The notes under the pieces were generated by a model that did not search any database, was not told the origin of the DNA, and saw nothing but the letters and a program-made list of their open reading frames with translations. The translations under genes were made by a program, and so were the position numbers. DNA of 64,000 nt, from the NCBI GenBank assembly GCA_965112155.1, contig OZ218101.1; one strand, 5' to 3'. How positions within the stretch are numbered: position 1 is the stretch's first letter; each line of letters starts with the position of its first letter. The stretch comes from Podarcis liolepis. Taxonomy: Eukaryota. Shown piece by piece: positions 7,780 to 64,000 of this stretch.

Positions 7780-10700
7780 ATCATAGAATCATAGAATCAT
7801 AGAGTTGGAAGAGACCACAAGGGCCATCGAGTCCAACCCCCTGCCAAGCAGGAAACACCATCAGAGCATTCCTGACATATGGTTGTCAAGCCTCTGCTTA
7901 AAGACCTCCAAAGTAGGAGACTCCACCACACTCCTGGGCAGCAAATTCCACTGTCAAACAGCTCTTACTGTCAGGAAGTTCTTCCTAATGTTTAGGTGGA
8001 ATCTTCTTTCTTGTAGTTTGGATCCATTGCTCCGTGTCCGCTTCTCTGGAGCAGCAGAAAACAACCTTTCTCCCTCCTCTATGTGACATCCTTTTATATA
8101 TTTGAACATGGCTATCATATCACCCCTTAACCTTCTCTTCTCCAGGCTAAACATGCCCAGCTCCCTTAGCCGTTCCTCATAAGGCATCGTTTCCAGGCCT
8201 TTGACCATTTTGGTTGCCCTCCTCTGGACACATTCCAGTTTGTCAGTGTCCTTCTTGAATTGTGGTGCCCAGAACTGGACACAGTACTCCAGGTGAGGTC
8301 TGACCAGAGCAGAATACAGTGGCACTATTACTTCCCTTGATCTAGATGCTATGCTCCTATTGATGCAGCCCAGAATTGCATTGGCTTTTTTAGCTGCCGC
8401 GTCACACTGTTGGCTCATGTCAAGTTTGTGGTCAACCAAGACTCCAAGATCCTTTTCACATGTACTGCTCTCAAGCCAGGTGTCACCCATCTTGTATTTG
8501 TGCCTCTCATTTTTTTTGCCCAAGTGCAATACTTTACATTTCTCCCTGTTAAAATTCATCTTGTTTGCTTTTGCCCAGTTCTCTAATCTGTCAAGGTCGT
8601 TTTGAAGTGTGATCCTGTCCTCTGGGGTGTTAGCCACCCCTCCCAGTTTGGTGTCATCTGCAAATTTGATCAGGATGCCCTTGAGTCCATCATCCAAGTC
8701 GTTGATAAAGATGTTGAATAAGACCGGGCCCAAGACAGAACCCTGTGGCACCCCACTAGTCACTCTTCTCCAGGATGAAGAGGAACCATTGATGAGCACC
8801 CTTTGGGTTCGGTCAGTCAGCCAGTTACAAATCCACTGAGTGGTAGCATAGTCAAGACCGCATTTTACCAGCTTCTTTACAAGAATATCATGGGGCACCT
8901 TGTCAAATGCCTTGCTGAAATCAAGGTAGGCTACATCCACTGCGTTCCCTTCATCTACCAGGCTTGTAATTCTGTCAAAAAACGAGATCAGGTTAGTCTG
9001 ACATGACTTATTTTTCAGAAATCCATGCTGACTGTTGGTGATCACAGCATTCCTTTCTAGGTGCTCACAGACTGTTTGCTTAATGATCTGCTCCAGAATC
9101 TTCCCTGGTATTGATGTCAGACTGACTGGGCGGTAATTATTTGGGTCCTCTCTTTTCCCCTTTTTGAAAATAGGGACAACATTTGCCCTCCTCCAGTCTG
9201 CCGGGACTTCGCCTGTTCTCCAGGAATTCTCAAAGATGACTGCCAGTGGTTCTGAGATCACATCTGCCAGTTCTTTTAATACTCTTGGATGCAGTTCATC
9301 TGGCCCTGGAGACTTGAACACATCTAAACTAGCCAAGTATTCTTGTACTATCTCCTTAGTTATTCTGGGCTGTGTTTCCTCTGCTGAATCATTTGCTCCA
9401 AATTCTTCAGGTCGGGCATTGTTTTCTTTATCGGAGAAGACTGAGGCAAAGAAGGCATTGAGGAGTTCAGACCTTTCTGTGTCCCCTGTTTGCATTTCAC
9501 CATCTTCTCCTCTGAGTGACCCCACTGTTTCTTTGTTCTTTTGCTACGAACATACCCATAAAAGCCTTTTTTGTTGCTTTTAACCTCTCTAGCAAGCCTG
9601 AGTTCATTCTGTGCTTTAGCTTTTCTGACTTTGTGTCCACACGTGCTGGCTTTTTGTTTGAATTCCTCTTTGGTGGTTTCCCCCCTTTTCCATTTTTTGT
9701 ACACATCCTTTTTTAATCTTAACTCAGTTAAAAGTTCTTTAGATAGCCACCCTGGCTTCTTTAAGCACCTTCCATGTTTCCGTCTCATTGGTATTGCCTG
9801 ACCTTGTGCTTTTACTATCTCCCTCTTAACAAACTCCCAGCCATCATGAACTCCCTTTCCTTTTAGTAATACTGTCCATGGGATCTCACCCAGCACTTCC
9901 CTAAGTTTTATGAAGTCGGCTTTCTTAAAGTCAAGAAATTGAGTCCTAGTATGCTTGGCTGCTCCTTTCCGCTGTATAGTAAACTTTAGAAGAGCATGAT
10001 CACTCGCGCCTAATGATCCTTCCACTTCTACCCCACTAACCAGGTCATCAACATTGGTTAGGACCAGATCTAAAATGGCTGTTCCTCTTGTTGCTTCTCT
10101 CACTTTCTGGACAATGAAGTTGTCTGCAAGGCCAGTGAGGAATCTGTTTGACCTTATGCTCTTGGCTGAGTTTGACATCCAACAAATATCCGGGTAATTG
10201 AAGTCCCCCATTACTACTATCTCCCTTCCTTTTGCATGCTTGGCCATCTGTTCCAGGAAGGCATCATCTATGTCCTCCGTTTGGCTTGGGGATCTATAGT
10301 AAACTCCCACAATGAGGTCTCTGTTATTCTTCTCTCCCTTAATTTTGACCCAAATGCTCTCACTTTGGCTTTGAGGTTCTAAATCTTGGATTTCTTCACA
10401 GGTATACACATCCCTGACATATAACGCCACTCCTCCTCCTTTCTTGTCTGGTCTGTTTCTCTGAAATAGATTGTATCCCCCCATTATTACATTCCAATCA
10501 TGGGACTTATCCCACCAGGTTTCAGTGATGCCTATTATGTCATATTTAGTTTGCTGTACCAAGAGCTCAAGCTCATCTTGTTTATTTCCCATGCTTTGCA
10601 CATTAGTGTACAGACATTGAAGTCCATTAATCATTCCCCCGTGTCTCTTATTTAAGGATTTTTTCCTCCCACCACTAGGTCTGCGTGCTGCTTGCTCCAT

Positions 10701-10826
10701 TTGGTCTATGACATTTGGATGATCATCTTCATCAATTGATAGACTCCTACCTTCAGGAGCACTGTCTCCCTCCCCCACATTAGTCAGTTTAAAGCCCTTT
10801 AAAGCCCATTAGTCAGTTTAAAGCCC
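7780..10826 (-). mobile_element. CR1 LINE, 5'-truncated at the ORF1 stop, near-complete ORF2
   Basis: APE endonuclease (GITETWW, MGDFNYPDI, LGASDH) and RT ([15 protein letters not shown]) motifs; (ATTCTATG)n tail at 7777-7803; possible CAGTAG TSD at 7774-7779 and 10826-10831. Confidence 0.97.
7861..10778 (-). pseudogene. CR1 ORF2 (endonuclease-reverse transcriptase) with one frameshift (~9540) and one premature stop (7954)
   Basis: ORFs 9360-10778 (EN) and 7954-9525 (RT) overlap in different frames; beyond the TGA at 7954-7956 the frame continues QWNLLPRSVVESPTLEVFKQRLDNHMSGML* to 7861. Confidence 0.9.
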
Positions 10827-11237: not shown

Positions 11238-11263
11238 CTCTAAAGTAAGAAACATGTTCTGCT

Positions 11264-12090
11264 TTAAATGGGCGCAAGACATAGGCCATGACATTATGTT
11301 GGAAGATTGGGAAAGGTTATGGAAAATAGTCAAAATTAGCAGACTGTTCTTTATTGAAAGAAAATTACATGAAAATGATGTATAGATGGTATATAACACC
11401 AGCACAGTTAGGGAAAATGTATAAAACTGGCTCAAATTTGTGTTGGAAATGAAAGGAAAAAGAAGGGACTTTTTACCATATGTGGTGGGATTGTAGTAAA
11501 ATTAAAATGTTCTGGGAAATGATATATAATGAGTTAAAGAAAATGTTTCATTTAACATTTGTGAAAAAGCCCGAAGCTTTCTTATTAGAGATTATGGGAA
11601 AAGACCTGCCAAAGAAATTTTAAAAACATTTTTATGTACACGACAATGTCGGCAAGAGTCTTAATAGTACAAGGATGGAAGAATGAGGAAATCCCGACGA
11701 AAAACTATGGACTATGCGGAATTGGCAAAATTGACACACAAACTACGTGACAAGCATAACTGTGATTTTAAAGATGAATGGGAACCTTTTACGAAATACT
11801 TAAAGAAGCAACAAAATGAATTGGACTCTTTGGCAGGTTTTGAATAAGCATTCACAAACTCTTTATTGTAATATATAGATAGATAATCTGAGGATCTTTA
11901 CAATTTTACAATATGCAGACAGAAAGATGTGTTGAGAAACCAGAGAAAGGAGCTGAGGGAAGTCCGGGGTGGGTCGGTTGGGTTTTCTGTTTGGGGTGGG
12001 GAAAGGAGGGGGGAAACAGTGTGGATGATGTATTTTTGTTTAAATTACTATGTTGAAATATCTAATAAAAATTTAATAAAGAAAGAAATT
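11264..12090 (+). mobile_element. 5'-truncated L1 LINE (ORF2 C-terminus, 3' UTR, poly-A)
   Basis: Decayed L1 ORF2 C-terminal zinc knuckle (CWK...GTFYHMWWDC), G-rich 3' UTR, AATAAA at 12064; perfect 13-bp TSD AACATGTTCTGCT at 11251-11263 and 12091-12103. Confidence 0.9.
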
Positions 12091-39242: not shown

Positions 39243-39427
39243 ATAGTAGGTCGTCTTATACTGTGTCAAACCCTTGGTCCATCTAGCTCCTTACAATCTG
39301 TCCTGACTGGCACCAGGTATCTTGGATATCCAGAAAGGAATCCTTCCTATCTCTACCTGCAGATGCTAGACTGAAATTGTGACCTTCTGCATGCAAAACA
39401 TTTGCTATACCACTGAGCTCAAGCCCT
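39243..39427 (-). mobile_element. Squam3-like tRNA SINE
   Basis: GACCTTCTGCATGCAAAACATTTGCTATACCACTGAGCT is the reverse of a tRNA-Cys-like head; CR1-like tail. Confidence 0.7.
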
Positions 39428-39444
39428 CAAAATGATTCATCATA

Positions 39445-41284
39445 GATCGACTTCCGGGTTGACGCGATCTGGAAATGGCGGATTCCCTCCGAGCTCCGGA
39501 GGGAATCGGCTCCACTGAGGATGGGTCTTTGCCGCGCCGGCGACGCGGGGACCCTTAAAAACCGCAGGCGCGGAAGCCTGCGGACTGAAGACTCGGCGGG
39601 TGCCTTAAGCGCCCCCCCTGATTCGCAAAGAGCCTTTTTAAAGGCTGCGGAGGGGATACGGGGGTGGCGTGGCACTGAGAGTCGATCGCTACCTCGGTGG
39701 AGCGAAGCCGCGAGCCATAACCAGAGAGCGCCGACTTCCTTCCTTGAAAATCTGGATTGAAAGAACTACCCGTGAGTAAGACGGATTGGGACTTTAAAAA
39801 TTTTTACCCTGAATTAGAGACGACCGGGGGGTGTGCTAAAAGGAAGTCCGCACCCCCCCCCCCCCTTGCAGAAGATCTAAGCAACGACATAAGAGCTAAG
39901 CTGGAGAGCCTACCCTTGGTGGGGTGAGTTAAAAAGGACATTAACTTTCAAGATTTTGCTAAGGGAAATCTTATGCTGGAGAGTGGAGTTTCAGAAGCCT
40001 TCTTTTTGTTTTAAACTACCCCCCCTCCCGGGCTCGGGAACGTCCTGCCTTTGTGCCTGTGTAAGAGCCGCGGAGTTTGACAGCTGTCAAAGCTGTCAAA
40101 CGGGCAATTTAAAGCGGAAAATTGTTGTTTAAGATCCCTTTGGACTAAGACAAGCTACAATTGAATCAAAATTGTTGGAAACAAAGTGATAATAAGAAGC
40201 TAAAGGGTTGTTGAGCAAAAGATTAATAAGTAACCAGATTCCCCCTAGGGGGAACTCTGTGAAATTACAATGGATACAATGGCTGTGGATGGAAAGTTAC
40301 TAGCCGAAATCGAAAGGATGTTTCAGTTGGTGGGAACCTTACAAGAGCAGAGCTTGGCCATGAATAAACAACTTGTGACTATGACCTTGGGAACAGGCAA
40401 CTCTGCTGTTTGTGTTGAAGACCTGAATGAGAAAGAATCCACAGCTGAAGGGGAAACAATATTTTCAGAGGTGGAAGAGACTAAACAAGAAAAAGAGAAA
40501 GTAACTTTGGGAAGCAACATCCAAAAGCTGACATCTGTGGAATATAAGCAAGGAGACTTTGAGAACACACCTACCACAAGTCTGCGAAAGATGCAGAAGA
40601 AGAAGGAGGAGGCCCTGGGACAATATGGAATACAGGAACTTAAAATAAAGAGACATGATTGGGGCCTCCGTTTGGACTTTGGTTCTGAGGATACAGGCTT
40701 TGTGGAATTTTTCCAGCAGTTGATTACAAATCTCCTTGTGGGAAGAGAATATACTTGGATGCTGAAAGAGCTTTTTCCAGACTCGACGACTGACATAAAG
40801 GGTTACCAACAAGACCGGCGGAGAGGGACTGAAAGAGATTTGAAAGCCTCGGACGTGAGAAACCCAGGCTGAGAACCTCGATTTTGGACTTTCATTGGGA
40901 AGGGACAAAAACCGGGGATGGGAGGGAGGGAAGAGGAGATTCTCAGGAACTCTCAAGACTTTAAGGTTTGGTTAATATGACTTTTAATTAGGACAAAATG
41001 AAAAATCGATGGAAGAGAACTTAAGTCCAACTTAGGAATATTAATTTTAATTACAAAAGAGGTAATAAGAAGAATAAGATGGTTAAGAGGAGAAATACCA
41101 ACTTGCTGATATAATTTTGGGAATTGGGATGCACGAGGGGGGGTGGGGGGAAGTCAGGGAACAAGGTTATGAAATGAGGATTGGCTGAATTTATACATGT
41201 CTTGTTATGTGTTATTTCTTTGTGTGTGTTTTGTTTTTATAAAAGTGGAAAACCCAATAAAAATTTTTTAAAAAAAACAAAAAA
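39445..41284 (+). mobile_element. 1.84-kb L1-mobilised non-autonomous retroelement (HAL1-like)
   Basis: Perfect 17-bp TSD CAAAATGATTCATCATA (39428-39444, 41285-41301), CpG-rich 5' end, single long sense ORF, G-rich 3' tract, AATAAA at 41256 and A-rich tail; no RT or EN motif. Confidence 0.85.
40270..40872 (+). CDS. 200-aa ORF of the HAL1-like element; N-terminal heptad/coiled-coil-like segment, possibly L1 ORF1-derived
   Basis: ATG-initiated (ACAATGG context) and uninterrupted; LLAEIERMFQLVGTLQEQSLAMNKQL heptad pattern; homology not verifiable here. Confidence 0.5.
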   Translation: MDTMAVDGKLLAEIERMFQLVGTLQEQSLAMNKQLVTMTLGTGNSAVCVEDLNEKESTAEGETIFSEVEETKQEKEKVTLGSNIQKLTSVEYKQGDFENTPTTSLRKMQKKKEEALGQYGIQELKIKRHDWGLRLDFGSEDTGFVEFFQQLITNLLVGREYTWMLKELFPDSTTDIKGYQQDRRRGTERDLKASDVRNPG

Positions 41285-43618
41285 CAAAATGATTCATCAT
41301 ATGGTCCATTCCAGTTCCTTGTACAGTATCATATCCCTTCACTTTCACAGAATACTAAGTAGAGGTTTAATATTGTGTTTTATGAGGAAAACATTTCAGC
41401 AAGCAAGGAGGGAAAATTGCACAAGAAATGTTATAAATGCTTCTCCCACTTGAGTAGCCTACTACAAAATAGTAAATTGGATCCTATATATTTCAGGTTG
41501 TGGGGGGAAATAATTACATATTCTTACATTGTATGGCTAGAGTTATGTTCTAAACTGTGAATTGAAGGAGGATAGTAGTAGCAGCAGCAGCAATTTTATT
41601 TGTTTAATTATGAGCCATAACAAAGATAAAAGACATTTAGCTCTTAATTTCCTAGCAGCCAATGTAAATAGAGGGACGCAAAATAACACAATTTCCCTTG
41701 TCTAACAGCAAAAAGCTCACAAATTCCCATGGTGTAACAATTTAAAGGAGGGTAAAAATATTCATAAAAGGTGAAAATGGTTAGACCAGGAAGACAATAG
41801 ATTGCTCAAAAACTTTGACACACATTCTCTTCAGACATTTAGCTGAATGTAATGTAAGAACCTTAAAGGTTTGGGGAGATCTTTCCTTAATTCATAAATC
41901 CCTTTTATGAGGTTTACTATTGTTGTCTTGGCCTTATTTGAATAAAGATTATGAAAGTTTAATTTCAGGGGTTATTAGAGAATGGTAAAGGAAAACAAAT
42001 CTCTTAACACTTTTGATATAGCTAGAATAGCTTGCCATGCCTTCCAGTAATGCTGGATTTTTAAGTACATTCCATTGATGGGATGATAGGTTGTTACAGG
42101 AAGTCCAGACTTCTTATAGCATCTTTTAAAGGTTATGGTTTCTTAATATGCATTCACAAGCAGTCACAATTTAGTTGCATTTAATTAATTTATTTCAATA
42201 TGCATAGTATGACATGGGGGATAGGCACCTCTAACTCTACTGAAAGAGTTTAGGAATTTTTTCTCACAAACATTTTTGCATAATATACACACATTTCTTC
42301 CCTATTATCAAAAACATCCCATATGAGGTGCTTTCATTACAGAGTTGTGATACTTTCAAAGCACTCCAAAAAGCAAAATTGTGTACCTAAAGAAGTGTGC
42401 CTTGATCATCCTAATCAAAAACTAAATACGTAATGTTGTCTTCTCCTGTCTTCTGCTGTTTCACCTTGGTCCATCTCTCTTGCATTCTTCTACCAAAATT
42501 ATTCATTCTCTCATTGCTCTGGTATTTACAGGGATGCTGTCTGTCATGTCGCTTTCAAACACTTTCAGTTTATGCAATGAAAAATATTTGATACACATCT
42601 GAACCCCGTAGTCTAGAAAAGTATCCACAAACTTACCTTAAAAACTAATTAGACAGTTAGTAATGGTAGTGACACAACTGATGCAATATACTTTGTTTCA
42701 TTCCTGATGCCTTAGTCCAAACAAAATATGATGTTTCATAGAAACATTAACTGGGCATGTTTTATTTCTAACATAAACTGTTGTGGCGGTGGCTGCACAA
42801 CCCCCAAATAGGCTAAACAGTTTTCCTTTTGGAGTTTATAGTAGCTGGGGGGATTTTCATCCTGATTGTGATGGTCCCAATCCTGACTGGGTTCCCCACC
42901 AAACTTCTTCACATTAGAAAAAGCATGCAATTAAATCAGAAGAACAGCTGTGTGTGCTGATTTTTGCAGTGCCTGGATATCAGGTGAGAGCCCCTGCCAG
43001 ATTTTATAGCTTCTGGACTAGGAGAGAGCAGAACGGTTGAAAACCCTGACAATAAGTAAATAGATGTGGCTGTACATCGCTGTGTCTCTGCAATACTCCA
43101 TAAGAGTCAACTTGGAACTTCCGCTGCCATTTGCACCTCTGAGAATATTTATTTTGCGTATCTATATCCCACTTGCTTACCAGAGTTGTCAAGACAGCTT
43201 ACAATATATTGTAATAATATTTCTGTTACTATGGCGGGAAAAGTTGTATGCAATTCCCCACCCTATCCTTCTTGGCCTGGAAATAGCTGCCCAAGCCACC
43301 AGATGTTGGTCCCTCATAGCCCTTACCTTTCCTACTGGGCTGGCGCTGTCTCCCACAGCTTCTGGATCTGAAAGCAGATGCAAGAGGCACTGGGGGAGCA
43401 AAGCCTCAGGTGTTTCAGCAGCCCAAATTAAAAATAAAAACCTTGCATCTGAAACAGTTGCAAAATAGTTCTATTGAAATGAAAACTCTGTTCTTAAGAG
43501 CTACATAGAACTATGGTACGCAAACTAACCTCCGGAGTATGTATACCTGAGGAAAGCCCATAGTACTGTAGTACCAATTCCTACGGTCTGAATACGAAAG
43601 CATGCTTTCTCAGAGGCA

Positions 43619-45374: not shown

Positions 45375-46665
45375 GTAGTAGTAGTAGTAGTAATAATAAT
45401 AGTAATAGTAATAGTAATAATAATAATAAAAATGTATTTGTATTCCGCCTTCCAAGACTGGGCTCAGAATGGCTAACATCATAAAACCAACACAACATGC
45501 ATAAAAACATACATCAATTAATTAAAATACATCTTAAAATTAATTCAGACAAGTTAAAATCTGGGCAGGTGGCAATTATCAGGTTGGAACTGAGAGTGGT
45601 TAATACTTGCCAGGACCAACTGTTTCCACTTATCATACAAGGACCTGTGAGCAGGTTGAGGGCCTCCTTTGGGCTTGTTTTATACAAAGGAAAGTAAGTC
45701 AAACTGCATCCTGCCCAAAGGCCTAGCAGAACGGCTCTGTCTTGCAGGCCCTGCGGAAAGATGTCAAATCCCACAGGGCCCTTGTCTCTTGTGAGAGAGC
45801 ATTCCACCAGGCCGGGGCCACGGCCAAAAAGGCCCTGGCTCTGGTCGAGGCCAGTCTGATCTCTCTGGGGCCTGGAATCTTTAGGATGTTGTTATTTGCA
45901 GCCGGTAAGGTCCTCCATGGGGCATACCAGGAGAGGCAGTCCCATAGGTACGAGGGTCCTAGGCCGTATAGGGCTTTAAAGGTTAAAACCAGCACCTTAA
46001 ACCTGATCCTGTACTCCACCGGGAGCCAGTGCAGCTGATATAGCACTGAGTGAATGTGATCCCATGGCGAGGACCCCATAAGAGGTCCTCGCCACGGCAT
46101 TCTGCACCCGCTGGAGTTTCTGGGTCAGTTTCAAGGGCAGCCCCACATAGAGTGAGTTACAATCATCAAGCCTGGAGGTGACCGTCGCATGGATCACAGT
46201 GGCAAGGTCAGGGTGAGAGAGGACCAACTGCTTAGCTCGGTGGAGATGAAATAATGCCGCCTTTGTTGTAGCTATAACCTGTGCCTCCATAGAAAGGGAA
46301 GCGTCAAATATTACACCCAAACTCTTGACAGAAGGCGCTGGCACTAATTGTTCCTCCACAAGGGATGGGAGTTGGCCCTCCAACCCCATATTGTCCCAAC
46401 CCTGCCAAAGGACCTCTGCCTTCGAAGGATTTAACTTCAACCGGCTCCCACATAGCCATCCAGCCACAGCTTCCAGACATCTCATCAGTGTGTCTGGGGC
46501 CAAGTCAGGATGGCCATCCATCAACAGAAAGAGTTGGGTGTCATCAGCATACTGATGGCAACCCAAACCAAAATTCTGGACAAGCTGGAGCATAAAGATG
46601 TCGAAAAGCATCAGGGAGAGAATTGCGCCATGCAGTACTCCACACACCAAGGAGTAGCGCGATGG
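45375..46665 (-). mobile_element. L2 LINE fragment (RT C-terminal part, 3' UTR, TAA/TAG tail)
   Basis: ORFs 45997-46773 (HQYADDTQL, LKLNPSKAEVL, TSRLDDCNSLY) and 45723-46100 (LHWLPVEYRIRFK) in different frames; (TAG/TAA)n at 45375-45428. Confidence 0.9.
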
Positions 46666-49600
46666 CAGCTCCTCCCCCCCCCCCCGGCGTGCTGCCATGT
46701 AGGTGGTAGGAATGTCTTTCAGTATGAAATGGGGATAAAATGAACCCATGAAAGTAACAAAATGATTCTTCAATCCCTAATAGATATCCCTTTACAAATG
46801 TTTGGGTTGAGTTTGAAGAAGTTGACAGGTGGGGCAGGTGGCAGAAATAGGACCTGCGGTGAATTCACATTCATCCTTATCCACATGTACACTCTACTTG
46901 TGTCTGAAAAGAGTTACTATCTCTAGGTAGTCAAGCTGTCAGTAGACTTGAATAGCTTCATTATTGTGAAGAAATGAAATATGATGCACCTTGAAGTAAT
47001 CCATTAATAGAAAAACAGTTTTTAAAAGTCTATAGATAGCTATTGATGAGTATCTCTGCAAACTATATTAGCCAACTTAACAAAAAAGAACAGCTTCACT
47101 GAAATTACAGATGTTTCAATTAGTTAGCTTTCTATTTATAACACCTTTAAAACTGCTGACAATATCTGAATGGATATCATTAGACAAATGATATCTTCAG
47201 ATGCATTATTCTCCCTCTCTCTCTCCCCTTCTCCCTCCCTCTATCTTTCCCCTTTCTTATTTTTAAAATAATCTTACATCTTCTAGCCAAAGGCGCTTGT
47301 CTATATGGCTGGACAGGTAGCCCATTTAATTAAACCTGCATTGAACATGCTGTGTTTGCTGTTGATAGGCATGGGTAAGACAAAGACAAATGCCAACTCA
47401 GCAGATATTGCTATTCAGAATTGTTTTTAAACATCTTTAATCTCTCATTCAGATCACATAGTATCTTTGATTTGTCTTCCTCCTTCATCCCCTCCCAACA
47501 CTCATCAGTTCAAAACTGCTTTATCTGGAGTGGTTGGTGAGCAAAGTGGGAATCTATGCAGCCTATCCATCACTTTTTCTCTTAATTGAATGACACCAGA
47601 ATTAGATCGATAAAATGAAACATGAGACAACTTTGCATTTCCACACTCACTTATTCTCCCTTCTCTATTACTCCCAGCCATCATCGTGACCAGAAACACT
47701 AAGCATGGCATTTGAACACTGTTGCCAAGCACACAAGCTGTTAGTATATGAATAAAATTGCCAGGAAAACAATAACACTTTTACATTAGAAGAGGCCAAG
47801 AAGTCAATGCAAACAACATTAGCTATGCCCATTCTGAAGGGTTATGTTACTGACAAAAAAGAGAACCCACAAATTCTGTTGCTTCCAGAGTAACTCCACC
47901 CATTCCCACCTCCCTTTCCCAATTCCTTTCCAGCTGTGTCTGATTGTGTGACAAGTCGCTGATATGACCTCTCTGCTCAATTCTGCAAGTTTCACAATAA
48001 ATCCAGACCAGCTGTGATTTCCTTGTATACAAGGTTCCTAAGCTCTCCAATGCATTATTGATAACCTCATCAATGTGCAAAATGCAAAGGCTGACACAGT
48101 TATAATCCAGCCTTTTCTTGAAAAGCTTTAGCGTTACCAAGCGAATCAACAACAAAAAAAGGAGAGAAGACAACTAAAAGTGGGCATTTTGGTCAATTGC
48201 ACTCGTAGTTTTTTTCCATCTGGTCAATATGATATGCTGGTTCCCCCTTCTCCTATCCTTTTCAACATTATTTTGCATTTTTCCACTGTGGCCATATTTT
48301 TATTAATCTCACTGTGTATGCAGGAATTATTCACTCTGAAACTATATATTTATATAAATATAAAAATATTATGCTGCCTTTAACTATTACCCCAATTATT
48401 TATTTCAGATTTTCAGATAAGTATACATAAATCGATGGCTAGCCAACCAGCTCAAACATACTTAAGAAAAAATGTTTAGTATGGGAACAGCAAGTAAGAT
48501 TTCTTCTGACATGCAAATATTTTGCTACCAAAGTAACATGGAGTTGGTTCTTAGCACAAGTGATCAAGTAGGAGTTAAACTGCACACTATATTAAGTGTG
48601 CTTACACCTCACCACTGCCCTTTTCCAGCAAAAGCAATCAAAGTGGGCACTAGTCGAGACTGGGCACAGCACAGGGAAGGTTAGGAGTGAAGGAGGTTTA
48701 ACCCTTTCTACTTCACACTGCTTTCCAACTGAGTCTTGTCCTGACAGCTGCAAACAGCACCTGCAGGGGGAAACAGATCAAAAAGTGATCTGCTTCTAGC
48801 ACCTTTGTTCAACACTCATTTGGGATACCATTGCCAGGAATGACAGTTGGGTTACTATGACATTTCTCTCTTCCATCACTTTGCATTTATAAAGGTAAGG
48901 ATGCACTTTGATAGGCAGAGTTCCACAAATATGGAGATTAGGTGTTGATTAGTGGGAGCTAGTTATTTCCCAGGGGCAATATGAAGTTGAAATTGTAAAT
49001 GACCTTTTACCAGCTCAATCAGATCCTTTCTTCTTAACAAAGTACAGAAAAATGAATTAGCTATCAACTTTTCCAGTTTTCTAATTTATAAACAGCTAGA
49101 ACAACTGTCACAGTTGCATGCACGATAAATACTTTTCTCTGTTACGTTTCCCCCCCAGTACCAGAATAATATGTTGACAACAATGAGAAAGTAAGATGAT
49201 TTAAGTGATTGTCTTCTCATCTGCATCACACAGTATTGTCACTTAAATAAATCAGTTTTTGACAATAGATGTTTTCATGTTGGAAAATATTTTTAATAAT
49301 ACAGAACTTTTGCTTTAAGCCTAGCAATAAAATACAGACTTTAACAAAACAGATATATTCAAGTTAAACTTTTTAAGAAGTTGGAAAACAGCATTAGGTT
49401 GGATCAAATCAAACACGTATCTAATATGGCAGATTTCGACCCCCCACCCCAAACCAGGACCAGCCAGCTCCATTTGGGAGATCCATCTACAAGGGGCATC
49501 ATGACAATGGTGGGAGGCGTAAGCTACCTCTGAACATAGTACTTTTGTTCAGCTATAATGGTCAAAATTCATATCAATGTGCACTTGAGTCACATGAGTT

Positions 49601-62518: not shown

Positions 62519-63393
62519 ATGGCTGAACAGGCGGCTGCACTGGTGGCTTTGGCCCAGGAGAACCAGGCCTTGACTCACACCGTGCAGCACTTCAGCAACG
62601 CTTGGAAGCCCTACCGGCTCCGGGGGCCGACGCCCCGGCTCCGGGCAAGTACCCAGTGGCTTTGCCTGAGAAATTTGATGGAGCCCCGGCCAGCTTTCCC
62701 ATGTTCCTGGCCCAGGCCAAGCTGTATATTCAGGGGCGAGCCCGGAACTTTCCTGACGACCGCACCAAGGTGCACTTTTTGATTAGTTTGTTAAAGGACC
62801 AGGCGGCCAAGTGGGCGTTGCCGCTACTCAGGCAAGACTCCCCCTTGCTGGCAGACTATACGGGGTTTTGCAATCGTTTGGAGGCCGCGTTCGGCAACCC
62901 CCAGAAAGAGAGTCAAGCCAACCGGGCGATTCGGCGTTTGAAACAGGGCAAGTCCACGGTGGCCACATATACCACGGAGTTTCGGCTGTTGGCACAGGAC
63001 TTGACCTGGAATGACTCGGCACTGCGGGACCAGTATCTCGAAGGGCTTTCGGACGAGGTACTGGACCAGTTGGCCACAATGGAACGCCCCACCACGCTGG
63101 ACACTCTCATTCAACGGAGTCTACAAATAGACGACCGGTTGGAGGATCGTCGTCAGGCCCGGGGTCGCCGACACTTCCAGTTCACGGCACCAGCTTTTTC
63201 CGGCAGCCCCACGGTCACAACTGATTTAACGGAGGAGCCTATGCAGCTCGGGGCAGTGCGGCCACGCCTTTCCCCCGCAGAGAAGGCGCGGCGTCGGGAG
63301 GGAAATCTCTGTCTTTACTGTGGCGGAAGTGGACACTTCGCTCGGTCCTGCCCTGAGAAACGCCAGCCGCAGGGAAACCGCCAACCCCAGTAG
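62519..63393 (+). CDS. gag: Gag (retrotransposon capsid plus CCHC zinc knuckle) with an apparent 1-bp frameshift near 62588
   Basis: ATG 62519 (MAEQAAALVALAQENQ...) joins the 62602-63393 frame (PEKFDG...FLAQAKLY...CLYCGGSGHFARSC) only with a frame correction. Confidence 0.9.
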
Positions 63394-63439
63394 CTGATGG
63401 CCCTAGCTACCGGGGGTCCCAAACCGTACAGAATGGGCC
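63372..63439 (+). promoter_or_regulatory. -1 ribosomal frameshift signal (G GGA AAC plus stem-loop/pseudoknot)
   Basis: Slippery heptamer 63372-63378 in the gag frame, 6-nt spacer, stem CCCC-A-GTAGCT / AGCTAC-C-GGGG; loop GGCCC pairs with GGGCC at 63435-63439. Confidence 0.8.
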
Positions 63440-64000
63440 CGCATCAATGGACTTGCAACATCTTATGGTTTCGGTACGTTTATACCCTCCAGGTGGGCCC
63501 TGGATCCTCACCCATGCTTTGGTAGATTCAGGGGCAACCCGCTCCTATATGGACGCTGCTTTTGCCGCCCATCATCAGGTGCCACTTCGGAACAAGCCAG
63601 TACCGGTCCAGGTGGAAGCGATTGACGGACGACTTCTGCGTTCAGGTGCCGTTACTCAGGAGACCCAGCCCCTGGTCCTGTGTCTCCAGCAGCACCGGGA
63701 GTTGCGAACTTTGGACATTGCCTCTATGCCCCGCTTTCCCCTGGTGCTCGGGATGGACTGGCTGGAAGCCCACAACGTTCAGATTGACTGGGTCAAACGG
63801 ACCGTGCACTTCCCAGACCCATGTTCCCATGCTCAATCCGGAACGCTGGCGGCCGCGCCCTCAGAGGAGGCAGCACCCACGCTCCCAGCCGTGTACCAGG
63901 ACTACCAGGACGTGTTCGAGGAACGGGGGGCAGACCAGCTGCCGCCGCATCGGCCTTTTGACTGCGGCATAGACCTCCAACCCGGAGCGCCTTTACCAGT
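63378..64000 (+). CDS. pol: Pol N-terminus (aspartic protease and start of RT), -1 frame relative to gag, open to the window end
   Basis: Manual translation: ...HALVDSGATRSYMD...VEAIDGR...LVLGMDWLEAHNVQIDW...YQDVFEERGADQLPPHRPFDCGIDLQPGAPLP, with no stop. Confidence 0.92.

Follow-up and report, generated by a model that had tools for sequence, protein, structure and literature searches.

A deeply branched clade of non-autonomous lizard retroelements with L1-like ends and one short open reading frame constrained at both termini

The window analysed here, a 64,000-nt stretch of Podarcis liolepis DNA, contains a retroelement at 39445–41284 whose features are compiled in Table 1. Its outline is basically that of a preceding sequence-only reading, which had described a perfect 17-bp target-site duplication (TSD), a CpG-rich 5′ region, one ORF of 200 aa and a 3′ part with G-tract, AATAAA signal and A-tail; all of these were recovered, the CpG observed/expected ratio and the GC content of the first 300 nt being 1.10 and 63%, respectively. 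The family 5′ end corresponds to the G at 39449, the bases ahead of it being additional ones of the window copy, and the conserved start codon of the family is the second ATG at 40279. The reported lack of reverse transcriptase (RT) and endonuclease (EN) motifs also holds: an open-reading-frame scan revealed no further sense ORF of ≥120 aa in the element, and the 200-aa ORF has no RT or EN match in Pfam. An identity as autonomous L1 was rejected on the grounds that the element contains no ORF2 and neither EN nor RT. The likeness previously seen between its 3′ end and an L1 3′ UTR at 11957–12090 dissolved into a 12-nt motif with an alignment score of 19, compared with a shuffle maximum of 32. 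The entire old L1 fragment of the window (11255–12090) was discarded as partner as well, and an L1 from another locus of the genome, L095, is closer. Directly adjoining the insertion site lies what we take to be a tRNA-headed SINE-like fragment (ca. 39350–39427, minus strand); the segment 39381–39419 is matched by RNA reads from other copies.

Table 1. Features of the element and its flanks (positions in the window)
Feature	Position	Strand	Remarks
5′ target-site duplication	39428..39444	+	17 bp, identical to 41285–41301
Additional 5′ bases of the window copy, ahead of the family start	39445..39448	+	
L1-derived 5′ region with CpG island, probably an internal Pol II promoter	39449..39880	+	end coordinate approximate
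Palindrome TGACAGCTGTCA with third half-site	40078..40098	.	predicted TGIF/TALE-homeodomain site
Palindrome directly 5′ of the start codon	40239..40254	.	like the motif 5′ of ORF1 in 9/11 L1s
Sole ORF	40270..40872	+	200 aa; 197 aa from the family ATG at 40279
N-terminal amphipathic/coiled-coil-like helix	40279..40398	+	predicted structure and purifying selection
Conserved C-terminal motif of 24 residues, ending directly 5′ of the stop codon	40798..40869	+	
Predicted RNA hairpin, 7 bp, over the final 8 codons	40845..40870	+	
G-rich conserved block 3′ of the stop codon	40897..40932	+	RNA read depth falls here
L1-like 3′ terminus: G-tract 41137–41159, T-rich stretch, AATAAA 41256–41261	41113..41269	+	74% over 175 nt to L095
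A-rich tail	41270..41284	+	
3′ target-site duplication	41285..41301	+	identical to 39428–39444

A DNA search of the same genome returned 3700 candidates, and all 40 that were scored are near full length with identities of 90–100%; the nearest copy is 99.15% identical to the window element, and one other copy encodes a protein identical to that of the window ORF. On the protein level, 1220 candidates were obtained, the best 150 of which were scored at 77–100% identity, 145 of them without an internal stop. Queries with divergent relatives revealed further groups, and two protein searches with 150 scored places each, belonging to distinct identity classes, amount to at least 300 copies, a figure deduced from these classes and not from a computed union. 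The window ORF and 96 ORFs from retrieved divergent loci (97 in total) were filtered for intactness; 81 pass and yield 33 representatives of less than 85% identity, whose proteins are 163–215 aa long and share a median identity of 44% and a minimum of 21%. Where both TSDs were found, the loci follow a common plan consisting of a 5′ region of about 800–870 nt, the ORF, and a 3′ region of 400–670 nt plus tail; TSD-bounded elements measure about 1.8–2.2 kb among the fetched loci. An L1-type 5′ end, a single ORF, a poly(A) signal and an A-tail are common to the whole clade. Beyond this genome we recovered 7 close protein relatives, 10 representatives and 14 profile hits; the named ones are solely Podarcis lilfordi "hypothetical proteins" from several loci, and the remainder are Logan contigs. 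The protein search scored neither a longer nor a fused version of the protein, a result that carries little weight. The window copy is a recent member of a large, deeply branched clade of non-autonomous lizard retroelements, and this clade is an abundant, recently active source of insertions. The earlier proposal of a young, multi-copy, non-autonomous element of L1 type is supported and a single-copy status excluded; its notion of one family captured the multiplicity but understated the scope, as the 33 representatives form a deep clade.

TSDs are present in 40 of 41 close copies, with a length of 13–26 bp and a mode of 17–18 bp, after exclusion of nine of 50 loci (a microsatellite site, a duplicate, two tandem arrays, one 5′-truncated copy and four loci without the 5′ motif). 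Most close copies carry 1–3 extra G/A residues at the 5′ end, and in two copies (L088 and L153) a 5′ inversion is found within the TSD, a pattern known from L1 twin priming. Among 20 L1 loci, L095 shares 73% identity with the element over the first 318 nt and 74% over the last 175 nt, the similarity of the 3′ ends reaching a score of 91 versus a shuffle maximum of 30. In an nhmmer comparison with the element profile, L095 matches the 5′ model positions 2–441 with an E-value of 3e-75 and the 3′ end with 6e-25, the latter corresponding to 80 bits versus ≤37 bits for the other sampled L1s. L095 encodes an ORF1 of 339 aa, which matches human ORF1p, and an ORF2 of 1243 aa with EN and RT; its family is young, as reflected in 119 ORF1 matches at 93–100% identity, and all 12 matches that were fetched run on into ORF2. 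The start of the element also fits the 5′ consensus of lizard clade-1 L1s, as far as the available part of its description extends (PMC5381506). In one element family, L079, the 5′ end is 84% identical to that of L095 over 449 nt, far above the other families compared, which suggests that parasite and host L1 may recently have exchanged a 5′ UTR. The element is presumably copied by L1 ORF2p; the driving L1 family is a candidate only, as the L1 sample comprises about 8–10 families at 20 loci and a different L1 may be the actual parent or driver. The genome harbours many young L1 families with an intact ORF2 of 1241–1255 aa (L089–L108), the majority of which display a palindrome and TGACCTTG upstream of ORF1.

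The ORF is intact in 27 of 30 copies selected by DNA, and in a set of 53 copies (23 of them selected by protein) five of the six indels within the ORF preserve the frame, the corresponding numbers for the UTRs being 10 of 44 and 3 of 25. Together with the 81 divergent ORFs that pass the filter, this bears out the expectation that the frame is preserved across the family. Under neutral substitution along the tree, 0.64 of 33 frames would be expected to remain open; the 33 were chosen as open, and the calculation therefore excludes neutral relics only, which such ORFs are not. The dN/dS comparison proposed earlier gave, over the deep tree, 0.31 for codons 4–30 (2ΔlnL versus 1 = 67), 0.78 for the middle of the ORF (2ΔlnL = 13) and 0.39 for codons 177–200 (2ΔlnL = 28), whereas the ratios in shifted frames are 1.4–1.5, 0.69–1.19 and 1.3–2.0, respectively. 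As the values of both ends are far below those of the shifted frames, the ends are constrained in a frame-specific manner and the middle is not; the latter changes faster than any other part of the ORF, varying in sequence and length while staying open. Among 44 near copies, dN/dS is about 0.55 on terminal and 0.62 on internal branches, and at the ORF ends private changes (7N:2S) and shared changes (21N:25S) are too few to be separated (p = 0.14). Since the near-copy ratios are alike and the private changes scarce, the case for selection rests on the deep comparison. The ORF is under purifying selection at both ends only, and part of the C-terminal conservation may reside at the nucleotide level.

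Several conserved signals accompany the ORF. The palindrome TGACAGCTGTCA occurs in all 29 family representatives, 185–235 nt 5′ of the start codon, and in none of the 20 L1 loci; in the accessible portion of one study the same sequence is described as the canonical TGIF1 site (PMC6158717), and we tentatively regard it as a putative TGIF/TALE-homeodomain site of the element. Over the final 8 codons, each position of the predicted 7-bp hairpin pairs in 28–29 of 29 families. Third positions in the stem are nearly invariant and its changes one-sided and G-U-compatible, while the loop codons vary synonymously; no two-sided compensatory change was detected in the 29 families, and Rfam provided no family, only two weak matches far under the gathering score. 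A 5′ UTR intron was considered and dismissed: a GTGAGT donor is present in 25 of 29 families, but no splice joint was seen at it in five raw-read runs, and the complete copies sampled retain the region.

Transcripts of relatives were detected in RNA-seq data, the raw reads being from a related species. Three bulk runs, all from one study and with about 12.6–12.8 million records each, contain 522, 671 and 1400 reads on the relative L047, and in each of two single-cell runs about 70 reads match the window copy. Over the ORF of L047, most first mates of the bulk reads map to the minus strand, which fits sense transcription if the library is a stranded one of the common kind. About half of the L047 reads continue into unlike sequence, and read-through and divergent copies contribute. 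Just 3′ of the stop codon (L047: 2690–2780), the conserved G-rich block coincides with a steep drop in read depth, and in one run 17 molecules start at 2720; the drop may be due to a G-quadruplex that blocks reverse transcription, to an RNA end or to diverged sequence.

The AlphaFold model of the window protein contains a helix from residue 4 to 40 with a pLDDT of about 90 over residues 11–30; the mean pLDDT of both models calculated is about 50, the confidence outside the N-terminal helix is low and the chains are mostly disordered. A profile built on the ORF1s of 8 L1s in this genome recovers human ORF1p over its RRM and CTD (E = 9.5e-7) and served as positive control for a profile of 31 element sequences, which retrieved no L1 ORF1p from the PDB at E ≤ 10. 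Profile–profile alignments between the element and L1 ORF1p by hhalign have probabilities of 3.5% and 0.4%, the better one placing the element start on an internal Met that heads the ORF1p coiled coil. An N-terminal profile likewise hits the start of the ORF1p coiled coil with an E-value of 0.0065, versus 0.92 at best on reversed ORF1s (18 proteins), a match that may reflect a generic coiled coil. ORF1p did not appear among protein searches of 94–377 aa or longer, and both ESM Atlas searches gave leads below 0.9 only. Neither the window ORF nor 7 relatives have a Pfam match above cut-off; this negative result is without diagnostic value, given that three lizard L1 ORF1s likewise lack an L1-family match and PF02994 matches nothing in the genome. 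Upstream of the start codon, the palindrome is common to the element and 9 of 11 L1s compared, and one element family, L125, has also retained the L1 pre-ORF1 motif TGACCTTG; for most L1s, alignments to the L125 upstream region are little or no better than those to shuffles. We consider it slightly the more probable case that the ORF descends from L1 ORF1, with the first coiled-coil helix as the most that would be left; RRM and CTD are absent from the protein insofar as none is detectable from its sequence. The comparison with ORF1p, suggested in the sequence-only reading, gave a hint of homology at best, with a match at the start of the coiled coil, no RRM or CTD and low hhalign probabilities.

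The element works like HAL1 and falls outside HAL1 on the criterion of ORF1p. Both are non-autonomous L1 derivatives with L1 5′ and 3′ ends, one long-kept ORF and no ORF2. According to those parts of the reports that are available, HAL1 codes for ORF1p alone and has several origins in mammals (PMC5753468), its ORF was maintained over long periods (PMC3627910), and it is also found in rat (PMC8535693). Its ORF1p is recognisable as such, unlike the 163–215 residues without detectable RRM or CTD encoded here, and the element has a conserved C-terminal motif of its own, a hairpin at the stop codon and a palindrome of TALE type. Moreover, the accessible text of three papers describes HAL1 from mammals only (PMC5753468, PMC3627910, PMC5786205), whereas the element stems from lizards. 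The previous assignment as HAL1-like is thus upheld with respect to L1 ends, TSD and A-tail, missing ORF2 and preserved ORF, and fails with respect to the coding of ORF1p, given the hhalign probabilities and the empty PDB profile search. HeT-A (Jockey clade) and Ag-Sponge (CR1 clade) also keep one protein in a non-autonomous LINE, but differ from the element in LINE clade and host and in having a protein that corresponds to ORF1p; for ORF1-present elements of this kind, including HAL1, multimerization with the protein of the autonomous partner has been proposed in the available excerpt (PMC5786205). Lizard clade-1 L1s, here L095, share with the element the 5′ terminal motif, the first 310–440 nt, the last 170–200 nt, the TSD length and the palindrome 5′ of the first ORF (PMC5381506, partial text), and L095 differs by its ORF1 and ORF2 and an interior that is not alignable. 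L1TD1, in the available part of its description, is a domesticated ORF1-derived host protein which reportedly binds L1 ORF1p and promotes retrotransposition (PMC11925450); in contrast to the element it is an immobile host gene and is described as an RNA-binding protein. We found no description of such a lizard element in the literature; Repbase/Dfam and the supplementary repeat libraries of genome papers lay outside this search and may contain it.

Our preferred reading, which we hold to be about evenly poised between right and wrong, is that the element is an L1 parasite with L1 5′ and 3′ ends, likely copied by L1 ORF2p, whose own protein likely acts as a minimal adaptor bringing the RNA into L1 particles. 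Transcription would start from the L1-derived internal promoter, and L1 ORF2p would insert the element RNA by target-primed reverse transcription. The ORF might have arisen from L1 ORF1 by loss of RRM and CTD while the first coiled-coil helix was kept. This N-terminal helix is predicted to co-assemble with the coiled coil of ORF1p. The C-terminal motif, which is basic, and the stop-codon hairpin are predicted to hold the newly made protein on its own RNA, such that selection would act in cis. A benefit in cis best explains why the frame was kept open in every lineage. In an extended and more doubtful version, which we would sooner expect to fail than to hold in full, the element would be a kind of L1 parasite not described before: in place of ORF1p it would encode a dedicated two-ended adaptor, composed of docking helix, free linker and C-terminal peptide plus stop-codon hairpin, with which it takes over L1 particles or ORF2p still bound to ribosomes, in either case in cis. 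It would also exchange 5′ ends with its host L1 and have diversified, within lacertid lizards, into dozens of coexisting families.

Rather unlikely, though a serious contender, is a variant of the same parasitism in which the conserved C-terminal peptide and the hairpin slow down termination, so that the RNA stays on ribosomes and captures new ORF2p, an origin from ORF1 not being needed. The final 8 codons and the position of the stop codon are indeed fixed among families down to 21% identity, with the middle free to vary within 163–215 aa, and the hairpin terminates on the stop codon. The C-termini, SD(V/I/L)R(N/S/D/L)PG followed by stop, loosely resemble StopGo/2A peptides in their xPG-stop end. 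The 2A motif is D(V/I)ExNPG followed in frame by P, and a genuine StopGo/2A peptide was rejected here: the register is off by one residue, E and the following Pro are missing, and N varies to S, D or L. Slowed termination also leaves the selected N-terminal helix unexplained.

We regard it as improbable that the protein acts in trans, either by poisoning L1 ORF1p assembly and thereby freeing ORF2p or by countering a host repressor, with the fast middle as a sign of conflict. A lone helix devoid of RNA-binding domains would suit a dominant-negative fragment, and the middle changes faster than the rest of the ORF; its dN/dS is, however, below and not above 1, and a benefit in trans would be shared by copies without the ORF, so that the frame would not easily be kept open in every lineage. 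Less credible still is the absence of any protein function, translation merely stabilising or exporting the RNA and the conserved ends being nucleotide signals. The near-neutral middle, the nearly invariant third positions of the C-terminal stem and the mostly disordered models are in line with this, but the N-terminal block has accumulated many synonymous changes at a dN/dS of 0.31 versus 1.4–1.5 out of frame (2ΔlnL = 67), and the residues of the C-terminal loop are kept through synonymous changes. That the element is a processed pseudogene derived from a host mRNA, or an isolated insertion, would be compatible with TSD and A-tail by themselves but has a negligible probability; it is refuted by the hundreds of full-length copies that are dispersed over the genome and fall into nested subfamilies, by the L1 derivation of both ends and by the lack of an intron-containing source gene among the scored matches.

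The clade bears on the questions of why non-autonomous LINEs such as HAL1 retain a protein and of how an RNA obtains access to the cis-preferring L1 machinery. Its protein is reduced to two short selected blocks over dozens of families, equivalent to a natural deletion scan, which points to a helix of about 40 residues and to a 24-residue tail plus hairpin, alongside young intact L1s in the same genome. Podarcis lilfordi copies carry the annotation "hypothetical proteins".

Some copies share their surroundings. At L043 and L048, two and three near-identical copies are arranged in tandem at distances of 3.4–4.2 kb in a satellite-like array and were probably amplified together with the satellite; the L1s L097 and L098 are flanked by a repeat similar to this array. 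Identical TSDs at different places were noticed for L016/L017, which have common flanks too, and for L158/L162/L164, and these are considered to be segmental duplicates and not independent insertions because of the same TSD (and, for L016/L017, the same flanks). Further repeats of the window include a LINE on the minus strand at 7954–10808, presumably of CR1 type, whose long frames for EN (482 aa) and RT (529 aa) are separated by a frameshift, a broken RT at 45723–46776 on the minus strand, which we take to be L2-like, and, at 62527–63972 on the plus strand, a frame of 288 aa with a zinc knuckle, presumably a gag-like frame of an LTR retrotransposon, followed by a protease-like region.
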